Positions 5,539-60,207 of a stretch of 62,427 bases of DNA are shown piece after piece. Each line of letters begins with the position of its first letter. Within the stretch, counting starts at the first letter, position 1. The DNA comes from an uncultured Anaerolineales bacterium (GTDB lineage Bacteria; Chloroflexota; Anaerolineae; B4-G1): NCBI GenBank assembly GCA_964551295.1, contig CAZKDJ010000001.1:1-62427 (forward strand), read 5' to 3'. Position numbers and translations under genes: made by a program. Below the pieces are notes generated by a model that was not told the DNA's origin, made no database searches, and worked only from the letters and a program-made list of their open reading frames with translations.

Positions 5539-5545
5539 TGCCCGC

Positions 5546-42906: not shown

Positions 42907-42918
42907 AGTGTTTCCTCC

Positions 42919-44295: not shown

Positions 44296-44308
44296 ACATC
44301 TCCCCCTG

Positions 44309-45784
<1,476 letters not shown>

Positions 45785-45799
45785 TCGAAACCTCCTAAA

Positions 45800-45845
45800 A
45801 AGTATGCAAGTTTATAAGTAGACAAGTTCGCTGACTCGCTAATCC
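45800..45845 (+). repeat. Degenerate octamer run in the gnd-oxidoreductase spacer
   Basis: aagtatgc aagtttat aagtagac aagttcgc followed by tgactcgc. Confidence 0.55.
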
Positions 45846-45863
45846 CATACCAATTTTCGCCCT

Positions 45864-47009
45864 CTAGACCTCTTTTTCCACCGCTTTCGCAAAGGTTGAG
45901 TTTTCGACCAACTTTTTCAACTCCCGCTCGAACGCCACACTGTCGAGCGGCAGGTCGACGGGCGCGCACGTCAGTGAGGCGTACAGCATCGCGTTGGCCA
46001 GCTCGACGGAATGGACGCCCTCCTCGGCAGGCGCGATCAGTCCCGCCCCCTCCAGAATGGCGTCGGCGAAATTCTCCAGGATCGCCAGATGCTGTCCGCC
46101 GTGGCCTTCGATGTCGAACGTCTCTACCTCGACGTCCGGCTTGGCGAATGCCTCCTTCGACGTGCGCAGAAATTCAGTCACCGGCACCGCGTTGTGGGCA
46201 AAGGTGAGCCGCCCGTCCTCCAACACCAACCTGCCGTTCTCGGCGGCGATCTCGAAGCGGTTGGTGCCCGGCGCCTCCCCGGTCGAGGTGACGAAAACGC
46301 CCGTGCAGCCGTTCGGATACTCGAAATAGGCCGTCACCTCGTCTTCCACCTCGATGGCGTGCCGCTTGCCCAGGCTGCACACGCTCCACACCCGGCTCGG
46401 CATGCCGCAGATCCACTGGAACAGGTCCAGTTGGTGCGGACTCTGGTTCAACAGCACCCCGCCGCCCTCCCCCGCCCACGTGGCCCGCCAGCTACCAGAG
46501 TCATAGTAGGTTTGCGTGCGAAACCAATCCGTGATGATCCAACTGACCCGTATAAAATCCCCCAGCACGCCCTCATCCACGAGCTGCCTGATCGTCCGGT
46601 AGTGCGGATCGGTGCGCTGGTTGAACATCGCGGCAAAGATCAGGCGCTCGTCCCGGTGCGCCGCACGTTTGTGCGCTGCGATGAGCCGCTCGCAGTCAGC
46701 CTTGTGCACCGAGATGGGCTTTTCGACCAGCACGTGATGCCCGCTCTCCAACGCTGCGATGCCGATGGTCGTGTGCGTATAGTGGGGCGTGCAGATGAGC
46801 ACCGCCTCGCAGATACGATCCCTCAGCAACGCGTCGGAATCGGTGTAGGCCGGGCAGCCGTACCGCTCCCCGGCAGCACGTGCCCGCTCCGGCACCACGT
46901 CGCACACCGCCGCCAACTCTACCTTGTCGAGCTTGGCGACGTTTTCAAGGTGCAGCTGGCCAATGCCACTGACGCCGATGACGGCCAGGCGAACTGTCTT
47001 CTCGCTCAT
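45864..47009 (-). CDS. Gfo/Idh/MocA family oxidoreductase
   Basis: AVIG.SGIG, TPHY.H, HVLVEKP, GGGVLLNQSPHQLD. Confidence 0.9.
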   Translation of the reverse strand: MSEKTVRLAVIGVSGIGQLHLENVAKLDKVELAAVCDVVPERARAAGERYGCPAYTDSDALLRDRICEAVLICTPHYTHTTIGIAALESGHHVLVEKPISVHKADCERLIAAHKRAAHRDERLIFAAMFNQRTDPHYRTIRQLVDEGVLGDFIRVSWIITDWFRTQTYYDSGSWRATWAGEGGGVLLNQSPHQLDLFQWICGMPSRVWSVCSLGKRHAIEVEDEVTAYFEYPNGCTGVFVTSTGEAPGTNRFEIAAENGRLVLEDGRLTFAHNAVPVTEFLRTSKEAFAKPDVEVETFDIEGHGGQHLAILENFADAILEGAGLIAPAEEGVHSVELANAMLYASLTCAPVDLPLDSVAFERELKKLVENSTFAKAVEKEV

Positions 47010-48304
47010 TCGCCCATTCGCTGATTCGCCGGTTCGCCCACTCGGTACAACATCTCCCCCGCCCTCGGCACGACCAGCACCCCCTCCTCCTCACGCCCGC
47101 GCCACGCGTCCAGATCGACGGTGGCCGGGTCGAGGTAGCCCAGGCCCAGTCGCTCGCAGCGCTCGCGTGGGATACCGGTCGCCAGCGTGACCTTGATGCG
47201 CCGGCTCTCGATGCCGGTCTCGGCGTCGTACGTGCCGAGACCACACAGGTGGGTCGAGTGAGCCAGCACGCCCCAGGGACAATCCTTGAAGCGCTCCCAC
47301 TGCTTGAGGAAATAGTCGCGCACGTGGTAGCCGGTCTCGTCGAGCCAGCGCCCGTGAGTGTAAGAAACCTCGTCGATGTGCGGGGCGTAGATGACGATCT
47401 CGCCGCCGTCGGCGACCGCCGGCTCCATCTTGTACATGCCCTTGGCCGCCGTCCACAGATCGTCATACAGTTCCGGCATCACCGAGAGCACGCGCTTGAA
47501 CGGCTTTTCGACATATACGATGTGGTGCTGCGCCGAAAGGTCGGCTGCCGCCTCGTAGGCCGCCTCCGGCGTGCCAAAGTAAAGGCCCACCAGATCACTG
47601 TGTCCTGCGGATCCTTTGGATCCGACCACCACCATGCTAAAGCACAGCTTGAGCACATCGATGAACGCGGCCGCCCGATCGATCACCCGGCGCACGGGCG
47701 TGTGCTTGGTGCCAATAACGTGCCAGCTGGTGATCACCGCCCCCAGCCAGTGGGAAAAGTCGATCACCTCCGGCCCGGCGACGCCGGGAAAGAAGTACTT
47801 GTTGCCGCCGGAAAAGCCCACCACCTCGTGCGGAAAGGTCGGCCCGCAGATGATGACGAGGTCGTAATCGAACAGCCGCTTGTTGATCGTGACCGGCACG
47901 TCCATCGACATCAGCCCGCCGGTTATCTCCTCGATCTCGGCGGCGGGGATGGTGCCGATGTGCTTGAAGGTCGCAGGATCGCTCCACTCGTGGTTATAGA
48001 TGCCGACCCGGGCGTATTTCCCCACCCGCTCCTCGGGCGTCAGGCCAAAGAGCTGGTTGAGGTGCGCCTCGTCCATCGGCTGGTGCGTCCCCAACGCAAT
48101 CAAGTAATCGAGTGCGGTAACCTTTTCGCCGACGGCGTCGTAAAAGACGCGGAACATCAGCGGCATCGGCGCGGAGCGCGTGGCATCTGGCGTGATAAAG
48201 AGCACCCGTTTGCCGGTCACGTCGTGCTCGGCGAAAGCCGCCGCCACGATCTGCCGCACCTCGTCTGCGTTCAGCGTTCTATCCGTGTATCCTCGACCGA
48301 TCAA
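47006..48304 (-). CDS. LarA-family (nickel-pincer) racemase/epimerase; candidate mannonate/gluconate 2-epimerase
   Basis: PDATRS, IALGTH, YNHEW, FPHEVVGFSGG.K motifs. TTG start at 48304 with GGAGA SD; the track start at 48655 overlaps the HAD gene. Confidence 0.8.
   Translation of the reverse strand: MIGRGYTDRTLNADEVRQIVAAAFAEHDVTGKRVLFITPDATRSAPMPLMFRVFYDAVGEKVTALDYLIALGTHQPMDEAHLNQLFGLTPEERVGKYARVGIYNHEWSDPATFKHIGTIPAAEIEEITGGLMSMDVPVTINKRLFDYDLVIICGPTFPHEVVGFSGGNKYFFPGVAGPEVIDFSHWLGAVITSWHVIGTKHTPVRRVIDRAAAFIDVLKLCFSMVVVGSKGSAGHSDLVGLYFGTPEAAYEAAADLSAQHHIVYVEKPFKRVLSVMPELYDDLWTAAKGMYKMEPAVADGGEIVIYAPHIDEVSYTHGRWLDETGYHVRDYFLKQWERFKDCPWGVLAHSTHLCGLGTYDAETGIESRRIKVTLATGIPRERCERLGLGYLDPATVDLDAWRGREEEGVLVVPRAGEMLYRVGEPANQRMGE
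47007..47046 (+). repeat. Octamer tandem repeat forming the larA-like/oxidoreductase junction
   Basis: cattcgcc cattcgct gattcgcc ggttcgcc cactcgg; contains the stop and next start codons on the minus strand. Confidence 0.75.
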
Positions 48305-48322
48305 TCTCCGATCTCCAATCTC
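48302..48322 (+). repeat. CAATCTC heptamer x3 forming the HAD/larA-like spacer
   Basis: caatctc cgatctc caatctc; on the minus strand it supplies GGAGA and the TTG start. Confidence 0.8.
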
Positions 48323-49221
48323 TACCTTTTCCACGGCGGAATCTCGGGCAGGATGGCCTCGAACTCGGCGATCACCTGCGCCTCGTACTCGCCCGCATAC
48401 TCGCCCGCCAGGAACTTGCTCGCCGCTTCCTCGTAGAACCGCTGCCAGGATTCCTCCTCGTGACCGGGATTGATCGGGCAAAACAGCGCGTCGTTGGCCT
48501 TGGCCGCCCGCATGTCGCCCGGCGCGTCGCCGACCATGAGAATGTGATCGGGGGGATACTTGCCTTTGGCGGCCAGCTCCAGGTGCAGCGCCTTTTTGCC
48601 CTGCTCCTGCCCGGCGATGACGCGCACATACTGGGCGATATCGTGCTCCTCCCACTCCCGCTTGAGCGCCTCGTACGGCGTGGCCGAGACGACGATCATG
48701 TCGGCTTTATCGGCCAGGAACTCGAGGCTCTCGCACACGTAGGGAAAGGGCGGCACGCCGTGCACCATGTCGGCCACGGTAGCGTTGACGCCCGTCGTCC
48801 AGGCCCAGGCCGTATCCAGCTCTGGATCGGGATGCGCTTGCCTATACGCCTTGAGGCCGTCGTTGCTCTTGGGGAACGCATCGTCGGCGATAAACTCGCG
48901 GATGCGGGGCGCCTCCGGCGGCACGACATGGCGCGCCTGCACCTCCGGACGCTCGCGCAGCAGGTCGAAAACCATCACCAACGCCGGCCAGCGGTTGATG
49001 CCACGCCATTTCGAATACAGGTTGACGAACTCGGCCGCCTCGCGGGCGTACTTGGAGACCGATTGTAGGCTCCAATGCTTGATGATGTTGGGGGTAAAGC
49101 ACTCCTTGTGCTTGACCTCCATCGTGTCGAAAGCACAGCCGTCGGAATCAATGCCGACAAAGAATTCTTTTTCCGGTTCTAGCTCCGCCAAAGGGCGAGC
49201 TGCTTCAGAATAATCTGTCAT
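48322..49221 (-). CDS. HAD-superfamily hydrolase
   Basis: Motif I GIDSDG..FD, VVSAT, GQE.G.K, MVGDAPGD. GGAGG SD before ATG 49221. Confidence 0.85.
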   Translation of the reverse strand: MTDYSEAARPLAELEPEKEFFVGIDSDGCAFDTMEVKHKECFTPNIIKHWSLQSVSKYAREAAEFVNLYSKWRGINRWPALVMVFDLLRERPEVQARHVVPPEAPRIREFIADDAFPKSNDGLKAYRQAHPDPELDTAWAWTTGVNATVADMVHGVPPFPYVCESLEFLADKADMIVVSATPYEALKREWEEHDIAQYVRVIAGQEQGKKALHLELAAKGKYPPDHILMVGDAPGDMRAAKANDALFCPINPGHEEESWQRFYEEAASKFLAGEYAGEYEAQVIAEFEAILPEIPPWKR

Positions 49222-49260
49222 AAAACACCTCCAATGATTTTGTGAAGTAACCATTCACTG

Positions 49261-49312
49261 CAGAGCCGCAGAGAAATCACCCATTCCTCTGCGATCTTTG
49301 CGTCTCGGCGGT
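49261..49312. repeat. Intergenic CGCAGAG/CTCTGCG palindromic element
   Basis: CGCAGAG (49267-49273) / CTCTGCG (49287-49293) plus degenerate extra units; resembles the 35221 element. Confidence 0.55.
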
Positions 49313-49349
49313 AAAAAAGACATGGCTCAACAGTTACTTTGAACTCGAT

Positions 49350-50183
49350 CTACACCCCACTGAACGCACTGAACCCGCCATCCACCGGAACGACGACGCC
49401 GGTGACGAAGGACGATGCCGGCGAGAGCAGCCACAGTATCGCGCCGATCAGGTCCTCCGGATCGCCAAAACGGGCCATCGGCGTGTGATCGATGATCGTA
49501 CGGCCGCGCGGGGTCAACTCGCCGGTGGCCTCGTCGGTCAGCAGAAAGCGGTTCTGCTCGGTCAGGAAAAAGCCAGGAGCCAGGGCATTGACTCGAATGT
49601 CCGGCGAGTATTCCTGTGCTATGTGCACCGCCAGCCACTGGGTAAAGTTGCTCACCGCCGCCTTGGCCGCCGAGTAGGCCGGGATGCGCGTCAGCGGGCG
49701 AAAGGCGTTCATCGAACTGACGTTGAGGATACGTCCATCCCCCCGGTCAGCCATCATCTTACCAAACACCTGGCTGGGCAGCAGTGTGCCCACGAAATTC
49801 AGGTTGAACACCCATTGAATGGCATCTGCGGGCAAATCGAAAAAAGAAAGGTCAGCCGAAGTCGTGGCCTGCTTCTTGTTGCCTCCCGCGCCGTTGATCA
49901 GGATATCGACGTGGCCCCACTGCGCCAGCACGACGTCGCGGGCACCCTCCACACTGGCTTTGTCGAGCACGTCGCACTTGACGGCGATGGCCTCGCCGCC
50001 CTGAGCCACGATGTCGGCAGCGACCTTTTCGGCGGCCTCTTCAAACAGATCCAGCACGGCCACTTTCACGCCCAGCCTACCCAACGCGCGGCTCATCGTC
50101 CCACACAGCACGCCGCCGCCGCCGGTCACCGCCGCGACCTGACCCGACAACCCAAACAGACTCTCCAAGTATTCCTTATCCAC
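49350..50183 (-). CDS. SDR family oxidoreductase, D-mannonate oxidoreductase/fructuronate reductase (UxuB)-like
   Basis: VTGGGGVLC, LINGAGGN, NVSSMNA..PLT.IPAYSAAKAA, RVNALAPGFF.T.QN, HTPM.RFG. GTG 50183 with GGAGG SD. Confidence 0.85.
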   Translation of the reverse strand: MDKEYLESLFGLSGQVAAVTGGGGVLCGTMSRALGRLGVKVAVLDLFEEAAEKVAADIVAQGGEAIAVKCDVLDKASVEGARDVVLAQWGHVDILINGAGGNKKQATTSADLSFFDLPADAIQWVFNLNFVGTLLPSQVFGKMMADRGDGRILNVSSMNAFRPLTRIPAYSAAKAAVSNFTQWLAVHIAQEYSPDIRVNALAPGFFLTEQNRFLLTDEATGELTPRGRTIIDHTPMARFGDPEDLIGAILWLLSPASSFVTGVVVPVDGGFSAFSGV

Positions 50184-50231
50184 ATGACCTCCCAAGATAT
50201 GACTTTTTTCGCAGTGGCGCATAACTTGCTA

Positions 50232-50301
50232 CGTCACCCTGAGCGGAGCGAAGGGTCTCGCCGTCGCTTGCACGAGATTCCTCACTACGTTCGGAATGAC
50301 G
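50232..50301. repeat. CGTC-tagged palindromic REP-like element
   Basis: CGTCACCCTGAGCGGAGCGAAGGGTCTCG ... CGAGATTCCTCACTACGTTCGGAATGACG: terminal CGTCA/TGACG and inner GTCTCG/CGAGAT arms. Confidence 0.75.
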
Positions 50302-50339
50302 GTAAGCAACTTATGCGGTATTGCCTTTTTTCTTTCCGC

Positions 50340-51242
50340 TCACAATTCGTAGGCTCGAGCCTTGATGTACTTGCGCACCAGGTATCCATACCGCTCGTCC
50401 GTCAGGGCGAACTCGATGAAAGCGCGAAAGTAACTCTCAAAGTTGCCCACATCGTAGCGCTTTTGGTCAGGAGCGAGTGGCCAGGCGTAGACCGGCTCGC
50501 CCTGCTGGAGCAGAAGCCGGATGGCGTCCGTCAACTGGATTTCGCCCCCTCTGCCGGGCAGCGTGCGATCAAGCATCTCAAAGATGACGGGGCTAAAAAT
50601 ATACCGAGCGGCTACCGCCAACGTGGAGGGCGCAGATTCCACAGCTGGTTTTTCGACAATACTCTGTACTGCCACGGGCTCTCCCGCTACAGGCTCCACT
50701 CCGCCGATGTCGACGATGCCGCGACGATAGGTATCCTCCGGCGGCACCTTCTCCACCGCTATGACGGCCGCGGCCCTCAGTTGCTCCTGTGCAGCCATCA
50801 TGGCCCGTAACGGCGCAGCGGGGTCAGCGGCGGCAATCATCGAATCACCCAAGGCAACGGCAAAGTTATCGCCGTCCACGAACTCGGCGGCCAACGAGAC
50901 CGCGTGCCCCAGTCCTTTGGGTGGGCTCTGGCGCGTGAAAAAGAAGCGCGCCTTGCCCTCCAAATAGGCCAAGTCCTCCAACACTGCCTCGTTCCCAGCC
51001 TGCTCCAAAGCCAGCACTAGCCCGGGGTCGGCGTCCAGATGATCCTCAATGGCACGTTTGCGCTCGCCGGTGATGATCAGAAGCTGCTGCAAGCCGGCGG
51101 CCTGCAACTCCTCCACCACGTACTGGATGGCCGGCTTGCGGCCCACCGGCAGCATCTCCTTGGGCTGCGACTTGGTCGAAGGCAACAGCCGCGTTCCCAA
51201 CCCCGCCGCGGGAACAACTGCTTTAGTGATTTGTTGAGCCAT
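50340..51242 (-). CDS. galU: UTP-glucose-1-phosphate uridylyltransferase family protein
   Basis: KAVVPAAGLGTR.LP.TK..PKEMLP, RQ..PKGLGHA, VEKP, GEIQLTDA, YDVG. Confidence 0.85.
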   Translation of the reverse strand: MAQQITKAVVPAAGLGTRLLPSTKSQPKEMLPVGRKPAIQYVVEELQAAGLQQLLIITGERKRAIEDHLDADPGLVLALEQAGNEAVLEDLAYLEGKARFFFTRQSPPKGLGHAVSLAAEFVDGDNFAVALGDSMIAAADPAAPLRAMMAAQEQLRAAAVIAVEKVPPEDTYRRGIVDIGGVEPVAGEPVAVQSIVEKPAVESAPSTLAVAARYIFSPVIFEMLDRTLPGRGGEIQLTDAIRLLLQQGEPVYAWPLAPDQKRYDVGNFESYFRAFIEFALTDERYGYLVRKYIKARAYEL

Positions 51243-51278: not shown

Positions 51279-52724
51279 CTACCCAACGAGCGGCGACAGG
51301 TGTCGCTCAAAGTGCGTCTCCAGCATCGCGGCATAGACCTGCTCGTGCGCCGCCAGCATCGCCAGCAGCCGCTCGCCGAACCGATCCAGCACCGAGCCAA
51401 AGGTCACGTGCAGCACCTGACGCGCGTCGAACTGGTCCAGCAGACCAGGTAGGTCCGCGTCATGCAGCGCATCCGGCGCGGGGACCTTGGCCAGATCCGC
51501 CGAGACGTGGTAGGTGGCCCGGTCGATCTCGTACCGCTGGCAAGCCAGGGTTAGGATCTCGCGGAAAAAGGTTGCGTCTACCTGAGCCACCGCGCGCAGC
51601 GCCTCCAGGTAGCTGGTGCCGGCGGTCTTGAGGTGTACCAACCCGTCAGTCAGCTCGGCGATTAGGGAATAGATGCTAAACTTGTCCGAGCCCGAGTGGA
51701 TGCTGAGCTTGTACGGCCCCAAGGCCCGGGCGATGGCGGCGTGTTTGGCCAACTCGGCCTTGAACTCGTCCAGGTCGCCGATATAGTCTACCCCTTTCTC
51801 GAACCGTCCCACGTAGCGCGGCGCCAGGCTGACCCACTCGACGCCCAGCCGCTTGAGCTCGCTGGCGACGTAAAAGTGCTCCTCCGGCGAGGTGGGCGTC
51901 TCCGTCTCGTCCACCGAGACCTCGAGTTCGAACCCCGATCCTGCGGGAGGATTGGCAGCCAAGTGCCGGTACATGCGCGACGCGTGCGCGACCGCGCGCC
52001 CGTACTTGGCCGCCGCGCGGTGCAGCGCCTCCCGGTCGAGCGTCATGGCCCGATCGCCCAAGTCGAACGAGTGGTTCAGATAGCGCCGCTCCATGTCCCC
52101 CAACGTGTCCTCCAGCGTGTCCCACGGCAGCGCTTGCATCTTTGCGTCCACCTCGGCCGGCGAGGCGGTGTGCGCCTCCCCATCGACATGGTCGCCGGGA
52201 TCGACGGTGTACAGAGTGAACCCTGCCGCGGCGAAGGAGTCGATATCCTGCGGCGTCTTGAGGTGATCGGCGTCGCTGCCCCACGGCTCGCACCAACCCT
52301 CCTGAAACAGGCCCCACGTGGCATCGTCCATCACCTGCTGCGGCGTGCGCCCGGTGCGGGCATTCTCGCGCACCGACTGCTGGGCAAAGATAGGCGCGAT
52401 CGTCTCGTATTTTCGCGCCGCGCGCACGTGCCCCGGCGTCGCCAAGCCCAGCCGGTCGCCGCAGCCCGCCGAGGTCTGCAACCCCAGGGATCGCGGGCGC
52501 AGCCAAGGCAAGCGCTCGCGCAGCACGGCCGCGTTCTCCGCTGTAAGCGAACAGACCAGCACATCTCCCTGCTGCTGGCCAGCAAAGCCACCCAAATCGC
52601 TACCCTGGACGAGCAACACCTTCCGGGCATCGGCGCTGCGCCGGGCCAGGGAATAAGTCGCGCCATCTAGCTCGACCTTCGAACGTGGATATACTTCAAA
52701 ACCTTCGACCACTGGAACCTCCAT
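51279..52724 (-). CDS. uxaE: Tagaturonate/fructuronate epimerase
   Basis: G.GDRLGLATPGH, FAQQSVRE..RT.R, DADH.K, E.SVDET, APRYVGRFEKGVDY, YKLSIHSGSDKF, HLKTAGTSYLEALR. ATG 52724 (TGATG coupling). Confidence 0.92.
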   Translation of the reverse strand: MEVPVVEGFEVYPRSKVELDGATYSLARRSADARKVLLVQGSDLGGFAGQQQGDVLVCSLTAENAAVLRERLPWLRPRSLGLQTSAGCGDRLGLATPGHVRAARKYETIAPIFAQQSVRENARTGRTPQQVMDDATWGLFQEGWCEPWGSDADHLKTPQDIDSFAAAGFTLYTVDPGDHVDGEAHTASPAEVDAKMQALPWDTLEDTLGDMERRYLNHSFDLGDRAMTLDREALHRAAAKYGRAVAHASRMYRHLAANPPAGSGFELEVSVDETETPTSPEEHFYVASELKRLGVEWVSLAPRYVGRFEKGVDYIGDLDEFKAELAKHAAIARALGPYKLSIHSGSDKFSIYSLIAELTDGLVHLKTAGTSYLEALRAVAQVDATFFREILTLACQRYEIDRATYHVSADLAKVPAPDALHDADLPGLLDQFDARQVLHVTFGSVLDRFGERLLAMLAAHEQVYAAMLETHFERHLSPLVG

Positions 52725-53953
52725 CAACCTCTCAAATGCACATCGGCGAAATCCAAATACCGCTCCCAATCGTAATCCGTCACATCGTGCACGCCGGGGC
52801 GAATGTGATAGCCGATGGTACCCACAACCGGCTGGCTCAGCCCGGGCATCTCGTCGACGGCCAACCCGTCGGTAGACAGCAGCCGATACACTGAGTCGGC
52901 ATGCCTGGCCGCTAAGAACTCGCCACACGGGTCGGCCCATTGATCCTCGGCCGCGCTGGCCACGTAAACCGGGCGCGGGGCGACCAACGCAATCAGCATG
53001 TGCTGATCCACTGGCAGATCGTCCTCCCGGTCATTGTACCGCTTAAAGTTTGCACAAAACCAGTGCGGAAACCTGACGTTGATCAGCTTGACCGTCTCGC
53101 CGAACCGCCGCCGCGAGAGCGCCGCTCCTCCGCAGCCCGAGTTATTCGAGATCACCAGCGCGAATCGCGCATCCCGCGCCCAGTCCCACAACGCGGCCTT
53201 ACCCAGGCGCGAGTGTCCCATCACCGCGACTCGCTCATGATCGATGTCTCCATCGGCCTCAAAATAGTCCAGCGCCCGGCTCAAGCCCCACGCCCAAGCA
53301 GCGATGGTGCCCCACTCATCTGCATCTGGTTTTGACTGCCCATCCCGGTAAAACAAGGGATGCACACCATTCTGAAAACCATCATCGAAATCCGGGTCCA
53401 GGTCGCCACAGTATACGGTCGCCAAACCATATCCTCGCTCCAAGATACGCCCGACTGGCCAGTGACGGGCGCTCACACCTCGGGAGGCCTCCGTCGCGCG
53501 ATGGTCGACCACGTGGCACGCTTCACTTTCCATCATCCAACGGGTCGAAAGCGTGATGCCAGGATCAGGGTGGATCGAGTGGTTGCCAAAAAAGTTTAAC
53601 CCGACAAAGGCGGGCACCGGCCCGGAACGATCGTTGGGCAGATAAACGAGCATATCCATCCACGGGCCGTTTTCCTCGCTCGTGAAATAGACCGACACCT
53701 CCTTACGCGTGGCTTTCCCACCGAGCGCCTCGCGGTCCATAGAGGTCACGTCAAAGGTCATCCCCTCTGGCCGACCCGGTGCCCTGCCATAAACGTGCCG
53801 CTCGAACAGCCGCAAGATTTCGGGCCTGCGCTGCGCCATCCAAGTTTGGGCATCGGCAACCCGCGTTCCATCGGAGAGGATCAGTGGATCGGGCAAGGTA
53901 TACTCAGGCACCTCTGCCTCATCCACATTGACCTCCCAGGATTCCATCGACAT
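52724..53953 (-). CDS. CE15 family glucuronoyl esterase-like alpha/beta hydrolase (no signal peptide)
   Basis: [21 protein letters not shown] nucleophile motif, SGCGGAA, HWF, PVDQH.L.AL.APRP, W.DP.GE, YH.R.G.H. Confidence 0.88.
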
Positions 53954-53966
53954 CTTCCTTTGTACG

Positions 53967-55100
53967 CTACGACCAACCCATCAACTGCGCCAATAGACGA
54001 GTGTACTCGCAAAAATTCGGCCACGATACGTCAGGCGGCACGCCGTGATCGCAACCCGGGATGAAGCCTCCCTCTTCCAGCAGGGGCGGCACCACGCGCA
54101 GCACCTCCTTGCGCATCGTCTCGCCACCGGCGGCCAAGGCGCGCTTATCCAGCCCGCCCAGGTAGGCCATCTGCCGGCCGTACTGCCGCCGGTAGGCCAC
54201 GATGTCGTTCCCGGCGGCTACCTCGACCGGAAAACAGCAGTTAAAGCCCACCTCGATCCACAGCGGCATCAACTCGGTCATGTAGCCGTCCGAATCCATC
54301 GAGACGATGGGGCAGTCGCTGCCTTTGACTGCATCCACCCACTTTTTCCAAACGGGCAGCAGAAAGCGCCGCACCATCGCCGGGGAGATCATACTGTGCA
54401 TCTTGTAGGCCATGTCTTCCCCCACCTGGACAAAGTCCAATTCCACCCGCGCCAGGATAGGCTCCAACGTCTGCAGCACGAAATCGGCCCACAAATCGAC
54501 CATCTCCTGCACAAAGGCCGGATCGTCGATCATTAACACGCAGAGATTCTCCAGGCCGCACCACTCGCGCAGTTGCCAGAACGGCCCGTTGACCGTGAGG
54601 CGCAGGGCGTAATCCCGTTCGCGCAGCGCGTCGCAGCGCGCCTCGAAATCCGCCGGAAAGCGCCGGGGATGGTGCGGATCGTAGCGCCACTTGATCCTCT
54701 CCTCCCAATCCCGCCTGGTCTGCACCGGGAAACGATGCCACTTGCGCGTGACAAAGTCCTTGGCGCTGCGGATGTAGGTGTAGTCGTACCGGTCCAATAT
54801 CTCTGTGATGGCCCCCATCCAATCTTGGACGACGTAGTGACCGTTGCGGTGCTCCAGCACCTTTTCCTCAAAGATGGGGATCATCTTGAAATCGACGCCT
54901 AGATCGACCCGTGGCCGCGTGCAAGGTTCGTATGGGATGCCCAGCACCCCCATCAGGTACTCGTACCAGGCGACGCCCTCGGGCAACCCCTGCTGATGCC
55001 AGGCTGCCAGGGTCGATTCGCGCGGCGAGCCGGGCGCTAAAGGGACCTTGTCCGGTTTGTTAAAGAGTAAAGCTGCACAGAACCGCTCCCTCTCATTCAT
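53967..55100 (-). CDS. URO-D (uroporphyrinogen decarboxylase/MtaA)-fold protein, putative methyltransferase
   Basis: M..RERF....F..PDKVP, EDMAYK...ISP..R.F..P, DSDG, EV.AGND...[20 protein letters not shown]. Confidence 0.8.
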
Positions 55101-55179
55101 GGCTAGCACGTCTGCTCAAACAAGTAGCCGCGATTTCCAAATCACGCCATGGAAAGCGCGAATACCGGATGAAGCTATC

Positions 55180-56607
55180 CTAGTCCAGCTTGTACGCCTG
55201 CTTGGCCAGACGGTAGGCCAGGTCGAGGATCATCTCCTGAGCGTCTTGCTCGTCCACGACGCCGCGCACCACCAATCCGGCCACCCAATTGGCGCTGGCG
55301 CGGCGCCACACGTCGTGGCGTGCCGGGATAGAGGGAAAAGCGCGCGTGTCGTCGTTGAATCCAGCAGTGTTGTGCACCCCGGCCGTCTCCATCACCCGAT
55401 CAAAATAGCGCCGTATCCCGTTCAGGCTGTCGTGGAACCACCAGGGTGGACCGATGCACAGCGCCGGGTAGTGGCCGGCCAACGGGGCCAGCTCGCGAGC
55501 GTAGGTCGATTCGTCCAGGGTAAAGACAACGAGCGTCAGCCGTGGGTCGTTGCCATATTTGTTGAGCAGCGGCCGTAGATTGTGGGTGAACTCGCTCGTC
55601 GTCGGTATGTCACAGCCCATATCGCGCCCAAAGCGCTCAACGATGCCCCGGTTGTGATCGCGCACCGAGCCGACGTGGAACTGCATCGTCAGTCCATCCT
55701 CGATGCTCATCCGCGCAAACTCCATGATCATGTGCGCGGTAAAGCGCCGGGCATCGTCCTCAGTGGCCTCGCCGCGCAGCGCGCGCTGAAAGATCGCGTT
55801 TGCTTCAGCCTCCGAGAGCTCCACCGTATAGGCCGAGATGGCAGCGTGGTCAGTGGACATGGCCCCCATCGATTTGAAGAACGCGCGCCGCTGCTCCAGC
55901 GCCCGGACGAAAGCGGCGTAGGAAGTCACGTCGATGCCGCTGACCTCGTTCAGCTTGTCGACGTTTTCCCGCCAGCCCTCGCGCAGCAGATTGACCACCC
56001 CGTCGGGGCGGAAAGCGGGCCGGATGTCGCCCCCCCACCCCGATTCGCGGATCGTCTTGTGAACCTCAAGCATATCGGTAGCGGCGTCGGTGGTGGATAG
56101 CACCTCGATATTGAACCGCTCGAACAGCGCTCGCGGGCGGAACTCGGGGCGGGCCAGCTTTTCCGCGACCTGGTCATAGATCGCCTGGGCCGTCTCGCCG
56201 TCCAGTTTTTGCTCGACGCCGAACATCTCGATCAGCTCGTGGGTCAGCCAGATGCCGCTGGGCGTGCCACGGAAGAGATAAAAGTTATCGGCGAAAATCT
56301 GCCAAATCTTGCGATGGTCCCGCTCCACCGGCCCGCCATCGACGCGGAGAACGCCCAGGTCCTCCAGCGGTATCCCCTGCGAGTACAGCATGCGAAAGAC
56401 GTAATGATCGGGGATGATGAGTAGATCGGCGGGCGTACCAAAGGTGGCGTCCTCGTCCACGAACAATCTGGGATCCACGTGGCCGTGCGGGCTGACGATG
56501 GGCAGGTCCTTCACCCCGTCGTACAGCTCCCGCGCCACGCGTCGCTGCGCCGGGTCGGGATCGAAGAATCGATCCGGGTCAAGTTGCCATGTCGAATGAA
56601 TCACCAA
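55180..56607 (-). CDS. uxaC: Uronate (glucuronate/galacturonate) isomerase
   Basis: PI.SPHGH.DP, PDHYV.RML.SQG, TTD, FRPD, TDH, MQ.H.G..R.HN, G.DMG.D, LAGHYP...GPPWWF.D, GF.DDTRAF.SI..RHD. Confidence 0.95.
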   Translation of the reverse strand: MVIHSTWQLDPDRFFDPDPAQRRVARELYDGVKDLPIVSPHGHVDPRLFVDEDATFGTPADLLIIPDHYVFRMLYSQGIPLEDLGVLRVDGGPVERDHRKIWQIFADNFYLFRGTPSGIWLTHELIEMFGVEQKLDGETAQAIYDQVAEKLARPEFRPRALFERFNIEVLSTTDAATDMLEVHKTIRESGWGGDIRPAFRPDGVVNLLREGWRENVDKLNEVSGIDVTSYAAFVRALEQRRAFFKSMGAMSTDHAAISAYTVELSEAEANAIFQRALRGEATEDDARRFTAHMIMEFARMSIEDGLTMQFHVGSVRDHNRGIVERFGRDMGCDIPTTSEFTHNLRPLLNKYGNDPRLTLVVFTLDESTYARELAPLAGHYPALCIGPPWWFHDSLNGIRRYFDRVMETAGVHNTAGFNDDTRAFPSIPARHDVWRRASANWVAGLVVRGVVDEQDAQEMILDLAYRLAKQAYKLD

Positions 56608-56631
56608 GCTCTCCTTCCTTTTCTTCCTCTC

Positions 56632-57474
56632 TCAACCTTTCCGCGCCCGGCAGGCCTTGATGTACCGCATCCCATATTCGTCCCGGCCCAGCAGCACATC
56701 GGCGGCCAGGATCGTATCGCAAAGGAGCGCCGGATGGCTGATGGGGCAGTTGACCCCGCACGCGATCGCCATGGCCATGAACGCCCGGTTCAGCAGGTCG
56801 CGCTCCGGCATGCCAAAGGAGACATTGCTGGCCCCCGCCGTAATGTTGGCATCCAGCTCGGCCTGCAGAAGGCGGATGGTCTCCAGCGCAACCCGCCCAG
56901 CCTGGGGCTCGGTCCCCACGGCCAACACCAGCGGGTCAAAGATGATGTCCTCGGCCGGGATACCCAGCGCGGCGGCACGGTCACGGATATTGTGGGCCAC
57001 CGCCAGGCGCTGCTCCGGCGTGGGCGGGATGCCATCGTCATCCATCAACAGGCCGATCACGGCGGCACCGCGCTCCGCCACCAGCGGCAGCACCGCCGCC
57101 AGCTTTTCCTCCTCCCCGTTGACCGAGTTGACCAGCGGCTTGCCCGGGCAAATGGCCAGCGCAGCCGCCAGCGCCTGTGGATCGAGCGTATCGACGCACA
57201 CCGGCACGTCCACCACATCGAACACCGCTTCGACGGCGCGGGGCAGCAGCGCCACCTCGTCCACGCCTGCTGCGCCGACGTTCACGTCGAGCACGGCAGC
57301 ACCGGCCTCCACCTGCGCCTGCGCCATCTCCCGCACGAGCGATAGATCACCCGCCGAAAGCGCCCGCGCCAGCTTTTTCTTGCCGGTGGGGTTGATGCGC
57401 TCACCGATGATCACTGTCGGCAGTTCTGGGCTGATGCGAACGGTACTGTTTTTTCCCCGTAGAACCGTCTCCAT
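56632..57474 (-). CDS. Pterin-binding methyltransferase (methyl-corrinoid:tetrahydrofolate MT; AcsE/MetH-pterin-like)
   Basis: IIGERINPTGKK, LDVNVG, VNSVNGE, IFDPLV, GASNVSFG.P.R. Confidence 0.88.
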   Translation of the reverse strand: METVLRGKNSTVRISPELPTVIIGERINPTGKKKLARALSAGDLSLVREMAQAQVEAGAAVLDVNVGAAGVDEVALLPRAVEAVFDVVDVPVCVDTLDPQALAAALAICPGKPLVNSVNGEEEKLAAVLPLVAERGAAVIGLLMDDDGIPPTPEQRLAVAHNIRDRAAALGIPAEDIIFDPLVLAVGTEPQAGRVALETIRLLQAELDANITAGASNVSFGMPERDLLNRAFMAMAIACGVNCPISHPALLCDTILAADVLLGRDEYGMRYIKACRARKG

Positions 57475-57494
57475 AGTCAAGTCTACCACAAGTC

Positions 57495-58130
57495 TCAATC
57501 TGCCGCCAACAACGTCTTGGCCCGGCCGGCAGCGGCAGAAGCATCAGGAGCGTAGAGATCGGCGCCGATATCCTCGGCGAAAGACTGCGTCACCGGCGCG
57601 CCTCCTACCATGACCATCACCCGGTCGCGCAATCCGGCCTCCTGCAACGCCTCGACCGTCGCCCGCATGCCGGGCATGGTGGTGGTCAGCAGCGCGCTCA
57701 ACCCGACGAAATCGGGTCGGTGCGCCTCTACCGCCTCCACGAACCCTTCGGGCGTCACGTCCACGCCCAGGTCGATCACCTCGAAACCAACGCCCTCCAG
57801 CATCATGCCCACCAAGTTCTTGCCGATATCGTGGAGGTCTCCCTTGACCGTGCCCAGGACAACCTTGCCCACCGGCTCGATGCCGGCATCCACCAAATGC
57901 GGCCGCAAAATCGCCAGCCCCGCTTTCATCGCGCGTGCAGAGATGAGCATCTCGGGCACGAACTTTTCGCCTTCTTCGAACAAGCGGCCCACCTCGGTCA
58001 TGGCTGCGATGGAGCCCTGGTATAGAATATCGGCCGCCGAGACGCCCGCCTCCAGGGTAGCCTGTACCTCGGCCTTTGTGGCAGCTTCGTCGCCATCGAG
58101 AACCGCGGCATAGATCGCTTCAATACTCAA
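57495..58130 (-). CDS. Corrinoid (cobalamin-binding) methyl-carrier protein
   Basis: Cap domain M.EVG.LFE.GE.FVPEML.SA.AM, GTV.GDLHDIGKNLV (DxHxxG), SAL.TTT, GGAP. TTG start with GAGGAGG SD. Confidence 0.93.
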   Translation of the reverse strand: MSIEAIYAAVLDGDEAATKAEVQATLEAGVSAADILYQGSIAAMTEVGRLFEEGEKFVPEMLISARAMKAGLAILRPHLVDAGIEPVGKVVLGTVKGDLHDIGKNLVGMMLEGVGFEVIDLGVDVTPEGFVEAVEAHRPDFVGLSALLTTTMPGMRATVEALQEAGLRDRVMVMVGGAPVTQSFAEDIGADLYAPDASAAAGRAKTLLAAD

Positions 58131-58160
58131 AGTCTGTCCTCCTCAATGAAAAATCCGATA

Positions 58161-59201
58161 CTACCCTTTTGAAGGCCACCGCCGGGCGGCCGCTACCAGG
58201 GCGTCGATGTTTTCAGGAAGCGTTCCCGGCGACACGCCGCCGCCGAAGGAGAGGATCATCCCCCCTCCCGGAGCCCCCTTATCCAAACACTCTTTTGCCC
58301 ACTGCGCTACTTCCGCGGGTGTCCCGCGCACGCCCAAGTCCAGCGGAGGCACGTTGCCCATCAGCGCCACGCGATGCCCCATCTTGGCCTTTACCTCAGC
58401 AGCGTCCACCTTGTGACTAAAGTTGAACACCTCGAAATTGGCCTCGGCCAGGCTCTCCAGCAGATGCGGGCAGGGGGTGTCGTTATGATAGACGCGGATC
58501 AGGCCGTCGAACGCGTCAAAGATGCGCCGCAGATGAGGGTGGATCATCTCTTCATAGTGCTGCGGCGAAACCATACCCACCAGGTCGTCCAACAGCATGA
58601 TGCCCTCCGGTTCGCGCAGCACGTCCAGCTGAGCGCGCAGCCAGCGGATGATGGATGTGGTCACCGTGTCCAGGAGCTTGGACGTCCTTTCCGGCTCAGT
58701 GGCCAGCGCCATCATCAGGGGCGTCATCCCCACCAACCAGGAAGCCGCCGTCATCGGCCCGCGGGCACAGACCATCCGGATAGCCAACCCCTGCGCCTGC
58801 AAGCGCTCGTCCATCGTCTCGTAGAGGCGCAGCACCAGGGGCATCAGCCCGTCTTCCTGCGGGTTGATCGGTTTCGCCTGCGCCCAAAAGGCCAGGTCGG
58901 GCACCAGGGGCTCGATGGAGGGCGGCCGGTCGGTGTAAAAACGCATCTTGGTGCCGAACGCCGAAGGCTCGGCTGCCATGCCGTACTCCACCCAAAAGCC
59001 GGGAATCCAGGCCACATCGGGAAAGCGCTCCAGCAACCCCAAGTTGATATCCAACCACTTTTCGGGAAAGAGAAAATAATCCCGCGTGTCGATGCCCGCG
59101 TAGCCGGGCAGCCACGGGCTATCGACGATCAGACCCACGGGGATCCGCTCCGGCTCCTCCAGCCGCGCCGCTTGCTTAAAGAGTTCCCAAGGTGTATCCA
59201 T
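58161..59201 (-). CDS. URO-D/MtaA-fold protein, putative substrate:corrinoid methyltransferase
   Basis: A...EP.RIPV, E.SAFG, GP.TAA..L.G, D...G.VSP..YEE, L.GNVPP, GGG.IL..G. ATG 59201. Confidence 0.82.
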   Translation of the reverse strand: MDTPWELFKQAARLEEPERIPVGLIVDSPWLPGYAGIDTRDYFLFPEKWLDINLGLLERFPDVAWIPGFWVEYGMAAEPSAFGTKMRFYTDRPPSIEPLVPDLAFWAQAKPINPQEDGLMPLVLRLYETMDERLQAQGLAIRMVCARGPMTAASWLVGMTPLMMALATEPERTSKLLDTVTTSIIRWLRAQLDVLREPEGIMLLDDLVGMVSPQHYEEMIHPHLRRIFDAFDGLIRVYHNDTPCPHLLESLAEANFEVFNFSHKVDAAEVKAKMGHRVALMGNVPPLDLGVRGTPAEVAQWAKECLDKGAPGGGMILSFGGGVSPGTLPENIDALVAAARRWPSKG

Positions 59202-59217: not shown

Positions 59218-60207
59218 TCATCGAAATCGGCTCTCCATCTGCCACATATCCGGGTTCGGTCCCAGAATGCGCTTGACCGCATCCGTCGCCTCGGTCAACC
59301 GGTCGACGACCTCGGAGGACAGCTCCAGATCGGCTGCCTGGGCCGTCTGCTCGATCTGATCTGGCTTGCGCGCTCCGGCAAGTACCGCGTTTACCCCAGG
59401 TTGGGCCAGCAGCCACGCTACAGCGACTTTGGCCATCGGTTCGCTGACCTCCCCGCTGATGCGGCCAATCTCCTTGACGGCGGCGAACGCCTCTGTCTCG
59501 CAGCCTGCTTCGCCGTGACGGGATCCGGGGCGATCCCCTGAAAAGAGGCGTATGCGCGCCCGGCCCTCGGGCACCTCGTCGGGCGTAGCATACTTGCCGG
59601 TCAGGAGCCCCTGCATCAGCGGACTGTAGCACAGGATGCCCACACCCGCCTCGACGCACTGGGGCTGAATCTCGTACTCGATGGCGCGCCAGAGCAGGCT
59701 GTAGGGCAATTGGTTCGTCTCCACCCATCCGATATCGAGCAGGTCAGGGAGATCCCCCGCGCCAAAGTTGCACACGCCGATAGCGCGTACCTTGCCCTGA
59801 TCGTGCAGCTTTTGCAGCGCCGCCATCGTCTCATCCAGGGGCACGGTGCGACTGGGCCAATGAATCTGGTACAGGTCGATGACGTCGGTTTGCAGGCACC
59901 GCAGGCTGCCCTCACAGGCCTGTAGCACGTCATCGGGCGACAGGTTGCTCCGGCTCACCTTGGTAGCGATCACAGCCTCGTGGCGACGGCCCTTCAGCGC
60001 CCGGCCCAGCACCTCCTCGGAATACCCTCCTCCATACCCTTCAGCAGTGTCGAAAAAATTGACCCCCGCGTCCAGCGCCGCGTGGATCGTGGCGATGGAG
60101 TCGGCCTCATCCTGTGGCCCCCACGTCCAGCCCCCGGCGATGGCCCAGCAGCCCATCGCCACTACAGAGACCTCGATGTCGGTTCGACCCAGTTCACGAT
60201 ATTTCAT
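59218..60207 (-). CDS. Aldo/keto reductase
   Basis: G.NFFDTAEGY, IATK, D.IDLYQIHWP, G..RAIGV.N, NQLPY.LL, YSPL.QGLL.G. Confidence 0.92.
   Translation of the reverse strand: MKYRELGRTDIEVSVVAMGCWAIAGGWTWGPQDEADSIATIHAALDAGVNFFDTAEGYGGGYSEEVLGRALKGRRHEAVIATKVSRSNLSPDDVLQACEGSLRCLQTDVIDLYQIHWPSRTVPLDETMAALQKLHDQGKVRAIGVCNFGAGDLPDLLDIGWVETNQLPYSLLWRAIEYEIQPQCVEAGVGILCYSPLMQGLLTGKYATPDEVPEGRARIRLFSGDRPGSRHGEAGCETEAFAAVKEIGRISGEVSEPMAKVAVAWLLAQPGVNAVLAGARKPDQIEQTAQAADLELSSEVVDRLTEATDAVKRILGPNPDMWQMESRFR

Follow-up and report, generated by a model that had tools for sequence, protein, structure and literature searches.

The window, the whole 62,427-nucleotide stretch of an uncultured Anaerolineales genome analysed here, carries on its minus strand a run of 18 co-directional genes (62420 down to 41599, gaps of -4 to 117 nt). 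A first-pass annotation had described seven tightly spaced genes within this run; all seven were recovered on the minus strand, with -4 to 79 nt between successive genes. A Gfo/Idh/MocA oxidoreductase and a Zn-ADH form the upstream part of the same cluster. In transcription order, the features are:

61611-62420, minus strand: Zn-ADH, cut by the window end (Pfam)
60221-61597, minus strand: Gfo/Idh/MocA oxidoreductase (Pfam)
59218..60207, minus strand: aldo/keto reductase, AKR (Pfam Aldo_ket_red, 2.9e-70)
58161..59201, minus strand: UROD1, 346 aa, URO-D superfamily, candidate substrate:corrinoid methyltransferase (MT-I)
57495..58130, minus strand: corrinoid (B12-binding) protein, CP, 211 aa, predicted methyl carrier
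56632..57474, minus strand: MT-II, pterin-binding, predicted methyl-corrinoid:tetrahydrofolate methyltransferase (alternative TTG start at 57498)
55180..56607, minus strand: UxaC, glucuronate/galacturonate isomerase (Pfam UxaC, 7e-82; NF002794, 525 bits, cut-off 387)
53967..55109, minus strand: UROD2, divergent URO-D paralog, specificity unassigned (Pfam URO-D, C-terminal half only)
52724..53953, minus strand: CE15 glucuronoyl esterase (Pfam GCE_fung, 1.8e-30)
51279..52727, minus strand: UxaE, tagaturonate/fructuronate epimerase (Pfam UxaE, 1.1e-151)
41599..51242, minus strand: downstream cluster of NTP_transferase, SDR (UxaD-like), HAD, LarA homolog (GntE-like), Gfo, 6-phosphogluconate dehydrogenase, GH4 and PPi-PFK (from translations; Pfam Lar_N, GH4)

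The genes from AKR to UxaE are followed by those of a Thermotoga-type hexuronate pathway. As summarized in PMC7583248, the Thermotoga maritima pathway consists of UxaC, UxaE, UxaD, GntE, GntK and Gnd (Rodionova et al. 2012). The window shares with it UxaC, UxaE, an SDR, a LarA homolog of the GntE-like D-mannonate/D-gluconate 2-epimerase family and 6-phosphogluconate dehydrogenase, all in one co-directional cluster. Besides these shared genes it carries the B12 module and the URO-D paralogs as apparent additions, and none of its genes was recognised as a gluconate kinase. The GH4 protein has the alpha-galacturonidase LplD as its best PDB match (3fef, 7.7e-41), and the gene order of the downstream cluster, by Pfam labels, recurs in two other loci (L004 and L176).

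A predicted corrinoid methyl-transfer module

UROD1 matches Pfam URO-D over its full length (E=5.9e-45) and falls under the NCBIfam cut-offs for MtaA, MtbA and HemE, scoring 80-98 bits against MtaA/MtbA profiles whose cut-offs are 235-400. CP combines Pfam B12-binding_2 (1.4e-19) and B12-binding (1.1e-30), and its translation shows the motifs DLHDIGKN (DxHxxG), SALL and GG; against TIGR02370 (methyltransferase cognate corrinoid protein) it scores 198 bits, under the cut-off of 215. MT-II matches Pfam Pterin_bind (4e-30) and exceeds the cut-off of NF005719 (methyltetrahydrofolate:corrinoid/iron-sulfur protein methyltransferase; 289.6 bits, cut-off 259); it belongs to a clade of close orthologs (71-94% identity), several of which have UROD1 on the same contig. 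A tblastn search of the whole window found no RACo-type activase, MtaB or DUF1638, and the earlier remark that the corrinoid activator is missing from it is therefore correct. In two other lineages (L089 and L182), a RACo activase lies directly 3' of MT-II. Their operons, with the co-directional order Opp-type ABC importer-ADH-AKR-UROD1-CP-MT-II-RACo, would each encode a complete four-component demethylase. The family assignments and these orthologous operons fit the methyl-transfer module originally proposed, and the UROD1/CP/MT-II trio is in all probability a real one.

The same component set is known from the anaerobic aryl methyl ether O-demethylases of acetogens and Desulfitobacterium (Moorella thermoacetica MtvABC, Acetobacterium dehalogenans OdmABCD/Vdm, and the Dhaf O-demethylase, which has an activating enzyme of the RACo type): a URO-D MT-I, a B12-binding_2 plus B12-binding CP with DxHxxG, a pterin-binding MT-II and a 2Fe-2S/ASKHA RACo, the last seen here in the L089 and L182 operons rather than in the window. 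The presumed chemistry, in which Co(I) attacks an O-methyl and the methyl ends up on THF, is also the same. The setting, however, is sugar-acid catabolism (uxaC, uxaE, GH67, PL22, Opp-type sugar importer) instead of aromatic metabolism, the host a fermentative member of the Anaerolineae and not an acetogen, and the presumed leaving group a sugar alkoxide where theirs is a phenolate; moreover, UROD1 belongs to a subfamily of its own, in which an H-N-[D/E] motif is conserved, and is mostly encoded away from CP and MT-II. In the reading we prefer, UROD1, CP and MT-II would form an O-demethylase-type cobalamin-dependent chain, completed by a RACo-type activase whose gene lies beyond the window.

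The AF2 model of UROD1 is confident (pLDDT 87, pTM 0.90), and its top Foldseek match is Methanosarcina mazei MtaA (4ay7/4ay8, TM 0.82-0.85; HemE, 0.78-0.81). That the closest structural neighbour is a corrinoid methyltransferase argues for the demethylase reading, and CP belongs to the same family as its counterpart in the methanol:corrinoid system MtaB/MtaC/MtaA. Both motifs reported previously, YHND in UROD1 (within RVYHNDTPCPH) and MDSD in UROD2 (within VSMDSDG), are present. When UROD1 is aligned with MtaA (4ay7), 'HIC' corresponds to 'HND' and 'PGCG' to 'FGGG'; the Cys ligands found in characterised zinc sites of the superfamily are missing from UROD1, and with them the His-x-Cys...Cys site by which MtaA activates the CoM thiol. 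The claim that there is no zinc motif holds as far as HxC...C is concerned, but UROD1 keeps a near-invariant H-N-[D/E] plus D205/H246 cluster, and the paralogs encoded nearby (URODb, URODc, URODd) retain an MtaA-like HxCG...C motif. C244, within HNDTPCPH, is not conserved across the wider subfamily; this and the missing Cys ligands weigh against the demethylase reading. The HemE signature is absent from UROD1.

Genomic neighbourhoods of UROD1

Adjacency was counted over 69 informative species-level Anaerolineae loci, and neighbour content over 80 species representatives. UROD1 orthologs (67-87% identity) are immediately followed by uxaC at 41 of the 69 loci, and UxaE follows at 34, so the link to hexuronate catabolism is real and much broader than the first-pass annotation could know. 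The adjacency survey that it called for bears out the UROD1-uxaC pair but not the B12 trio beside uxaC: CP and MT-II lie between UROD1 and uxaC in no clade other than that of the window (L006-8, L176/177). CP occurs within 10 kb of UROD1 at 8/80 loci, leaving 72 without it, and MT-II at none of the 80, so trans-acting corrinoid partners must be assumed for most genomes; stand-alone MT-II-RACo modules (L178-180) show that partners can come from elsewhere in the genome. Nonetheless, no fewer than six distinct lineages carry CP in cis to UROD1: the clade of the window and L176, that of L089 and L182, and L029, L055, L066 and L087. In each of them UROD1 is 78-91% identical to CP-less orthologs versus 68-76% to other CP-linked ones, which indicates that CP was probably recruited repeatedly to UROD1 operons and that one function is common to these lineages.

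An AKR lies directly 5' of UROD1 in many loci, with ADH-AKR-UROD1 or Gfo-AKR-UROD1 as recurring orders; in L176 and L182 the Gfo/ADH part of the upstream order is orthologous and preceded by an Opp-type ABC importer. Many operons that encode NagA/NagB and an Opp-type importer along with two or three URO-D paralogs have no recognisable glycosidase, and L169 has eight-member URO-D arrays without CP. Together with the 72 CP-less loci, and with HemE as proof that the fold works without a cofactor, these patterns could mean that UROD1 and its paralogs are corrinoid-independent in most genomes, acting on uronate-containing oligosaccharides as cofactor-independent or metal-dependent enzymes (e.g., a hydrolase, lyase, isomerase or decarboxylase in a TIM-like barrel) to which CP and MT-II are occasional, coincidental neighbours. 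We find this quite improbable, given the CP in UROD1 operons of six independent lineages, the full CP-MT-II-RACo set after UROD1 in two, the placement of CP-MT-II exactly between UROD1 and uxaC in the window, the HxCG...C motif of the paralogs and the missing HemE signature.

In three genomes (L044, L052, L053), UROD1 borders on methanol modules of the composition MtaB-CP-DUF1638-RACo. In vitro, methyl transfers of corrinoid systems can run either way, and with MtaA as nearest structural neighbour, UROD1 might conceivably work in the MtaA direction, moving a methyl group from methylated CP (charged by MT-II with the methyl of methyl-THF, or by MtaB with that of methanol) to an acceptor in a methylating system. 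The MtaB clusters are, however, convergent and not co-transcribed with UROD1, the thiol-activating zinc site is absent, and substrate methylation would serve no evident purpose in a catabolic operon with UROD1 ahead of uxaC; we consider this direction extremely improbable.

Candidate substrates of the proposed demethylase

Our preferred reading, to which we give about as much credence as doubt, casts UROD1 as MT-I in a corrinoid demethylase that acts on a methylated hexuronate, with 4-O-methyl-D-glucuronate the likeliest candidate. UROD1 would bind this substrate, imported or freed in the cytoplasm, and its conserved His/Asp(Glu)/His cluster may assist departure of the oxygen, as a Lewis acid or a general acid, while Co(I) of CP takes the methyl group. 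MT-II would pass the methyl from methyl-Co(III) to tetrahydrofolate, and the free glucuronate would enter UxaC and then the UxaE/SDR/LarA-type epimerase/6-phosphogluconate dehydrogenase route. Co(I) cleavage of an aliphatic sugar methyl ether is chemically harder than that of an aryl methyl ether, and we know of no characterised precedent. MtaB, which differs from UROD1 in fold, uses a metal Lewis acid to open an aliphatic C-O bond to attack by Co(I), the kind of chemistry that a sugar methyl ether would call for. Literature searches found no precedent for an anaerobic, B12-dependent demethylation of uronic acids. If true, the activity would be an O2-free removal of methyl groups from plant-derived uronic acids within a sugar-acid catabolic operon. 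The cytochrome P450 6-O-methyl-D-galactose demethylases of marine bacteria, encoded within polysaccharide-utilisation clusters, likewise strip a carbohydrate O-methyl to open catabolism, but they are O2-dependent monooxygenases of unrelated fold and cofactor that release formaldehyde (PMC6292453), whereas the UROD1 system would run without O2 and conserve the methyl as methyl-THF.

The first-pass guess of 4-O-methyl-glucuronate is favoured by some neighbourhoods and weakened by others. GH67 alpha-glucuronidases free this compound, and L032 has a GH67 gene directly 3' of UROD1, while in L025, a locus that also has LacI, a CUT1 ABC transporter and GH3, such a gene lies three genes 5' of it; GH67 adjoins UROD1 at these two loci only. 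Pectin-type genes are far commoner neighbours than xylan-type ones: PL22 (oligogalacturonate lyase) occurs at 12/80 loci, the order often being PL22-cupin-URODb-UROD1-UxaC-UxaE-KduI, and KdgF-like cupin, KduI, GH28, GH88 and GH4 nearest LplD are also found. Homogalacturonan contains no 4-O-methyl-glucuronate.

The methyl taken by the same corrinoid system could instead be the C6 methyl ester of galacturonate, from the monomer or from imported methyl-esterified oligogalacturonides of pectin. Co(I) would attack the ester methyl with carboxylate leaving, on chemical reasoning more readily than alkoxide, and the methyl would be kept as methyl-THF, not lost as methanol. Besides the dominance of pectin-type neighbours, the frequent UxaE (required for galacturonate only), the LplD-like GH4 of the window and the adjoining methanol modules point this way. 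We still judge it unlikely: the isolated UROD1-GH67 pair of L032 and the aldouronate-type locus L025 are left unexplained, UROD1 stands beside uxaC even without UxaE (e.g., L044, L059, L066, L068), and the window's clade has in its operon a CE15, close relatives of which hydrolyse methyl uronate esters (PMC10807430).

A conventional aromatic O-demethylase would have the same MT-I/CP/MT-II/RACo architecture; UROD1 would then act on methoxylated phenolics that come in on plant oligosaccharides, for example feruloyl groups or pieces of lignin alcohols that CE15 sets free, with the uronate genes as co-neighbours through cell-wall oligosaccharide use. To our knowledge, every characterised URO-D-type O-demethylating MT-I enzyme acts on aryl methyl ethers. 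OdmB and VdmB are listed among such enzymes (PMC10418091), and CE15 enzymes cleave lignin-carbohydrate esters (PMC10807430). Against an aromatic substrate, which we hold to be very unlikely, the tight and widespread UROD1-uxaC adjacency persists without CE15 or any esterase, the recurrent neighbour families include no aromatic-ring catabolic genes, and UROD1 is only distantly related to any protein of solved structure in the PDB.

Two genes originally counted with the module proved not to be conserved parts of it. CE15 is a clade-specific addition, restricted to the window's clade (L006/7, L176/177) and found at 0/80 loci elsewhere. It matches MZ0003 (6ehn, 8.5e-155) and OtCE15A (2e-149) in the PDB, has GHSRLG as catalytic-serine motif and shows no evident N-terminal signal peptide. 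OtCE15A, the nearest characterised CE15, prefers neither of methyl glucuronate and methyl galacturonate clearly over the other (PMC10807430), and CE15 is therefore no pointer to xylan. UROD2, a weak match to Pfam URO-D (1.2e-12, C-terminal half alone), is dispensable and no stable part of the module: it has shrunk to a 124-aa remnant in the sister species L176, and its orthologs elsewhere lie in unrelated gene contexts. Across the UROD2 family, D272, D274, C353 and H355 are invariant.

Gene content of the hexuronate cluster

Every real gene in the 52724-59201 stretch (G+C 62%) lies on the minus strand, and intergenic gaps range from -4 to 117 nt over 18 co-directional genes. Reading the window, we confirmed the gene order described in the first-pass annotation, together with the YHND and MDSD motifs of the two URO-D-fold proteins.

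Genes of the cluster and the matches on which their names rest
61611-62420, minus strand: Zn-ADH, truncated by the window end
60221-61597, minus strand: Gfo/Idh/MocA oxidoreductase (Pfam)
59218-60207, minus strand: aldo/keto reductase, AKR (Pfam)
58161-59201, minus strand: UROD1, URO-D-fold candidate methyltransferase I (MT-I) (Pfam PF01208 URO-D, E=5.9e-45, residues 5-342)
57495-58130, minus strand: corrinoid protein, CP (PF02607 B12-binding_2 and PF02310 B12-binding; DLHDIGKN)
56632-57474, minus strand: MT-II, pterin-binding methyltransferase (PF00809; NF005719, 289.6 bits, above the cut-off of 259)
55180-56607, minus strand: UxaC (525 bits, above the cut-off of 387)
53967-55109, minus strand: UROD2, divergent second URO-D paralog (URO-D, 1.2e-12, C-terminal half only)
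52724-53953, minus strand: CE15 esterase (Pfam GCE_fung; GHSRLG)
51279-52727, minus strand: UxaE (1e-151)
downstream of UxaE to 41599, minus strand: NTP_transferase, SDR, HAD, LarA homolog, second Gfo, 6-phosphogluconate dehydrogenase, GH4, PPi-PFK

UxaC, UxaE, a LarA-family epimerase and Gnd thus sit in one cluster, and Pfam labels give the same order in a sister species (L176). Judged by sequence, the downstream genes match a Thermotoga-type hexuronate route, in which fructuronate is reduced to mannonate, GntE (a LarA-family enzyme) epimerises mannonate to gluconate, and the pentose-phosphate pathway follows (Rodionova et al. 2012, as cited in PMC7583248). The activity of GntE was shown biochemically (PMC7583248). 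No gluconate kinase was identified in the window's cluster. The longest open reading frame of the LarA homolog (47006-48655, minus strand) overlaps the HAD gene (48322-49254, minus strand) by more than 300 nt; since the orthologous call in L176 has 430 aa, the start probably lies near 48298. The GH4 gene that ends the cluster (42919-44295, minus strand) is closest to the Bacillus subtilis alpha-galacturonidase LplD (3fef, 7.7e-41), with the Thermotoga GH4 1vjt at 3e-15.

The absence of a corrinoid-activating enzyme, already remarked on from the sequence, was borne out by tblastn, which found no gene for the reductive activase RACo, for MtaB or for DUF1638 in the window. An Rfam scan of the window gave a tRNA as its sole match and no cobalamin riboswitch, and a promoter/terminator scan returned nothing above shuffles (17 versus 11.8 +/- 3.5). 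The remainder of the window holds cell-envelope glycosyltransferases, TPR proteins and unrelated genes. Four successive large membrane proteins (about 770-1100 aa) with PMT_2-type glycosyltransferase domains occupy 9082-19914 on the plus strand, preceded by a GT2 and a phosphodiesterase/sulfatase-like gene. In positions 1-6000 the G+C content falls to 50-54%, versus about 62% elsewhere; this part carries a 1115-aa open reading frame with no Pfam match (470-3817, minus strand), a methyltransferase-like open reading frame and a tRNA-Lys(CTT) at 5402-5477.

UROD1 and its probable corrinoid partners

Both sequence (PF01208) and predicted structure place UROD1 in the URO-D superfamily. An AF2 model built from 120 aligned sequences, UROD2 family members among them, reached a pLDDT of 87 and a pTM of 0.90, and Foldseek found Methanosarcina mazei MtaA to be the closest structure (TM 0.82-0.85), with HemE only slightly lower (0.78-0.81), a small gap. 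With an earlier model from 17 close orthologs (pLDDT 58), Foldseek could not tell HemE from MtaA. In the PDB, sequence and profile searches matched HemE and MtaA and, at a very weak level, CdmB; the structure of an O-demethylase MT-I was not among these matches. UROD1 differs from both the MtaA and the HemE families. It scores below the MtaA/MtbA/MtsA-type cut-offs (TIGR01463, 91 versus 235; NF040654, 80 versus 400; NF041608, 36 versus 600) and lacks their His-x-Cys...Cys zinc site for thiol activation, the 'HIC' and 'PGCG' of 4ay7 aligning with 'HND' and 'FGGG'. It likewise falls below the HemE cut-off (TIGR01464, 61 versus 303) and lacks the C-terminal G-H-G histidine of HemE, 'LGHGI' aligning with 'FGGGV'. 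Residues conserved across 77-78 subfamily representatives are H239 (77/78), N240, D/E241 (73/78), D205, D/H206, E78, H246 (50/78) and N283. The MtaA-type HxCG...C motif is retained by URODb, URODc and URODd, the paralogs that neighbour UROD1 in other loci. As for the partners, CP combines a B12-binding_2 cap and a Rossmann B12-binding domain with the DxHxxG His-on motif, and MT-II is assigned by PF00809 and NF005719 to the pterin-binding methyl-corrinoid:THF methyltransferases.

Two related loci in other Anaerolineae encode the activase. In one (L089), the co-directional operon reads SBP5-OppBCDF-ADH-AKR-URODc-UROD1-CP-MT-II-RACo, with identities to the window of 85% for UROD1, about 79% for CP and 78% for MT-II; its RACo follows MT-II directly and all four of its domains are matched by Pfam (RACo_C_ter, 1.4e-84). 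Another (L182) presents the minimal set SBP5-OppBCDF-ADH-AKR-UROD1-CP-MT-II-RACo, and the UROD1-CP-MT-II-UxaC order of the window recurs in the sister species L176/177. A CP gene also accompanies UROD1 in cis in L029 (CP-URODc-URODb-Gfo-UROD1), in L087 (UROD1-CP-URODd) and, at the operon end, in L055 and L066. Of the six UROD1 lineages linked to CP, every one is nearer to CP-less orthologs (78-91% identity) than to the other five (68-76%), which indicates repeated recruitment of CP with no functional split. Close MT-II orthologs are found as well in stand-alone MT-II-RACo modules (L178-180), which indicates that corrinoid partners can be supplied in trans. Contig sizes common to the UROD1 and MT-II match lists (37326, 8577, 6925, 16548, 5047, 17166, 31470) served as a proxy for co-occurrence; three of the seven pairs were checked directly as co-located (L176, L182, L089), and the matching sizes suggest at least four more candidates.

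Several independent observations, namely the complete operons, the recurrent CP in cis, the structural model and the motifs, therefore argue that UROD1 is a corrinoid methyltransferase, and we predict with high confidence that UROD1, CP and MT-II form a corrinoid methyl-transfer system. The operons L089 and L182, with MT-I, CP, MT-II and RACo complete, strengthen the core of the module proposed in the first-pass annotation, a proposal supported in part overall. We also weighed a split methionine synthase, composed of a URO-D/MetE-like enzyme, CP and MT-II, but discarded it because UROD1 lacks a homocysteine/zinc site based on Cys and the gene conserved next to it is uxaC.

The stand-alone module of L178 (9533-13200; also in L179 and L180) comprises a 150-aa open reading frame, an MT-II 81% identical to that of the window, a 227-aa protein weakly resembling the activation domain of MetH (Met_synt_B12, 6e-05), and RACo, with no CP or URO-D gene nearby. 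In three Anaerolineales genomes, a convergent MtaB-CP-DUF1638-RACo cluster, MtaB being a methanol:corrinoid methyltransferase (Pfam 1e-150), lies directly beside UROD1 (L044:7984-12513, L052:17433-20630, L053:11286-16834), which hints at co-located harvesting of methyl groups from methanol and from uronates.

Conservation beside uxaC and the likely substrate

Nearly all homologs of UROD1, UROD2 and MT-II belong to metagenome-assembled genomes of Anaerolineae/Chloroflexota. When one genome per GTDB species was scanned, 275 stretches with relatives of UROD1 emerged, of which the 80 best (67-87% identity) were taken with 10-kb flanks and annotated by tblastn with the window proteins and by clustering of all open reading frames, with Pfam labels on recurrent families. 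uxaC lies at most 700 bp downstream of UROD1 on the same strand in 41 of the 69 loci with sufficient downstream sequence, and either uxaC or uxaE is downstream in 43. Within the 10-kb flanks, CP occurs in 8/80 loci, and MT-II, CE15 and a UROD2 ortholog in 0/80 each. The conserved partner of uxaC is thus UROD1 and not the B12 trio; the expectation of a module conserved beside uxaC holds for UROD1 but, outside the window's own clade, not for CP or MT-II. The typical operon is LacI, then SBP_bac_5-OppBCDF-[sulfatase]-[NagA-NagB]-[URODc]-[AKR-Gfo]-URODb-UROD1-UxaC-UxaE-SDR-LarA-Gnd-PfkB, with PL22-cupin-URODb-UROD1-UxaC-UxaE-KduI-SDR as a frequent variant. Upstream of UROD1, ten operons (L033, L045, L054, L056, L061, L063, L067, L069, L083, L088) carry NagA/NagB-like genes, sulfatases, GlcNAc 2-epimerase-like or heparinase II/III-like genes and no recognisable glycosidase, which suggests import of amino-sugar/uronate oligosaccharides cleaved by some other enzyme.

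With uxaC as the constant neighbour, the simplest product would be glucuronate or galacturonate, and the substrate of the system is probably a methylated hexuronate. GH67 enzymes free (4-O-methyl-)glucuronate from xylo-oligosaccharides. In L032, a full-length GH67 alpha-glucuronidase directly follows UROD1 (the upstream genes are unrelated), and L025 is an aldouronate-type locus with GH67, UROD1, LacI, a CUT1 ABC transporter and GH3. Chance would co-locate GH67 with UROD1 roughly 0.1-0.4 times in 80 loci, assuming at most one GH67 per ~4000-gene genome; because GH67 genes are so rare, the two co-locations, one directly adjacent, are suggestive of more than chance but not conclusive. Methyl-esterified galacturonate fits as an alternative substrate: pectin-type neighbours of UROD1 prevail (PL22 in 12/80 loci, KdgF-like cupin, KduI, GH28, GH88), the GH4 of the window is nearest to an alpha-galacturonidase, and methanol modules adjoin UROD1 in three genomes. 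An ester substrate, however, leaves L032 and L025 unexplained. We therefore favour 4-O-methyl-glucuronate, which accounts for the GH67 pair and for the place of UROD1 as an enzyme feeding into a common core operon for hexuronates; the full statement, with this compound as most likely substrate, we consider evenly poised. The methylated-uronate reading of the first-pass annotation is accordingly upheld in part: uxaC adjacency speaks for a hexuronate and the GH67 loci for 4-O-methyl-glucuronate, but pectin-type neighbours are commoner than xylan-type ones. CE15 cannot separate the two candidates, since OtCE15A, the closest characterised relative of the window's enzyme, prefers methyl glucuronate and methyl galacturonate to a similar degree (PMC10807430).

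The CE15 fold itself is clear (GCE_fung; PDB 6ehn, 8.5e-155; OtCE15A, 2e-149), with GHSRLG as the G-x-S-R-x-G serine motif, and among the UROD1 loci surveyed the gene is confined to the window's clade. UROD2 orthologs (69-89% identity) lie beside uxaE in one sister contig (L174) and otherwise in an eight-paralog URO-D array (L169), among glycyl-radical enzymes (L171) or alone (L172, L175). The UROD2 position in L176 (12303-12677) is taken by a 124-aa open reading frame that faintly resembles the C-terminal end of URO-D and is apparently what is left of a decayed copy. On account of this remnant and the unrelated contexts of the UROD2 orthologs, we rejected the idea that UROD2 is held stably in the module as a second MT-I specific for uronates. 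UROD2 and CE15, earlier counted as module members, are accessories and not defining parts.

A possible class of carbohydrate O-demethylases

4-O-methyl-glucuronate decorates glucuronoxylan, among the most abundant land polysaccharides, and the glycans of plants and algae commonly contain further methylated sugars; we know of no mechanism by which bacteria remove such ether methyls anaerobically. Full-text literature searches brought up no demethylase that uses a corrinoid to act on a sugar or uronate, in line with the first reading, nor any account of this operon of Anaerolineae. The carbohydrate demethylases found characterised were all aerobic P450s (PMC6292453), which need oxygen, whereas the proposed corrinoid route would work anaerobically. 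The UroD superfamily includes O-, S- and halogen-demethylases (PMC10418091); the architecture is thus already known, and the setting and presumed substrate class are new. We tentatively propose, at somewhat less than even odds, that UROD1 founds a class of carbohydrate O-demethylases that work anaerobically with cobalamin, turning 4-O-methyl-glucuronate into glucuronate and methyl-THF, and that the many URO-D paralogs of Anaerolineae form a wide repertoire of MT-I enzymes, each specific for its sugar, which draw in trans on common CP/MT-II/RACo modules. This repertoire would, under the same tentative proposal, take in URODb, URODc, URODd and UROD2 as well as the arrays, which reach eight genes and in some cases lie beside glycyl-radical enzymes.

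Anaerolineae are plentiful in sediments and anaerobic digesters. If true, a corrinoid-dependent sugar O-demethylase would close the gap in anaerobic ether-methyl removal, widen the substrates of O-demethylases beyond aromatics to include aliphatic sugar ethers, and reveal a route, unseen before, that brings polysaccharide methyl groups into the C1 metabolism of anoxic sediments and digesters, tying polysaccharide breakdown in Anaerolineae to C1/folate metabolism and hence to acetogenesis/methanogenesis precursors. The L182-type operon would then offer a concrete four-gene system open to reconstitution.

Two large tandem arrays of URO-D paralogs, with no CP within 10 kb of either, were also observed in Anaerolineae: one of eight paralogs in 10 kb (L169:10001-20551), and one in which the paralogs alternate with genes for glycyl-radical enzymes and the radical-SAM activases of these enzymes (L171:10001-21134).
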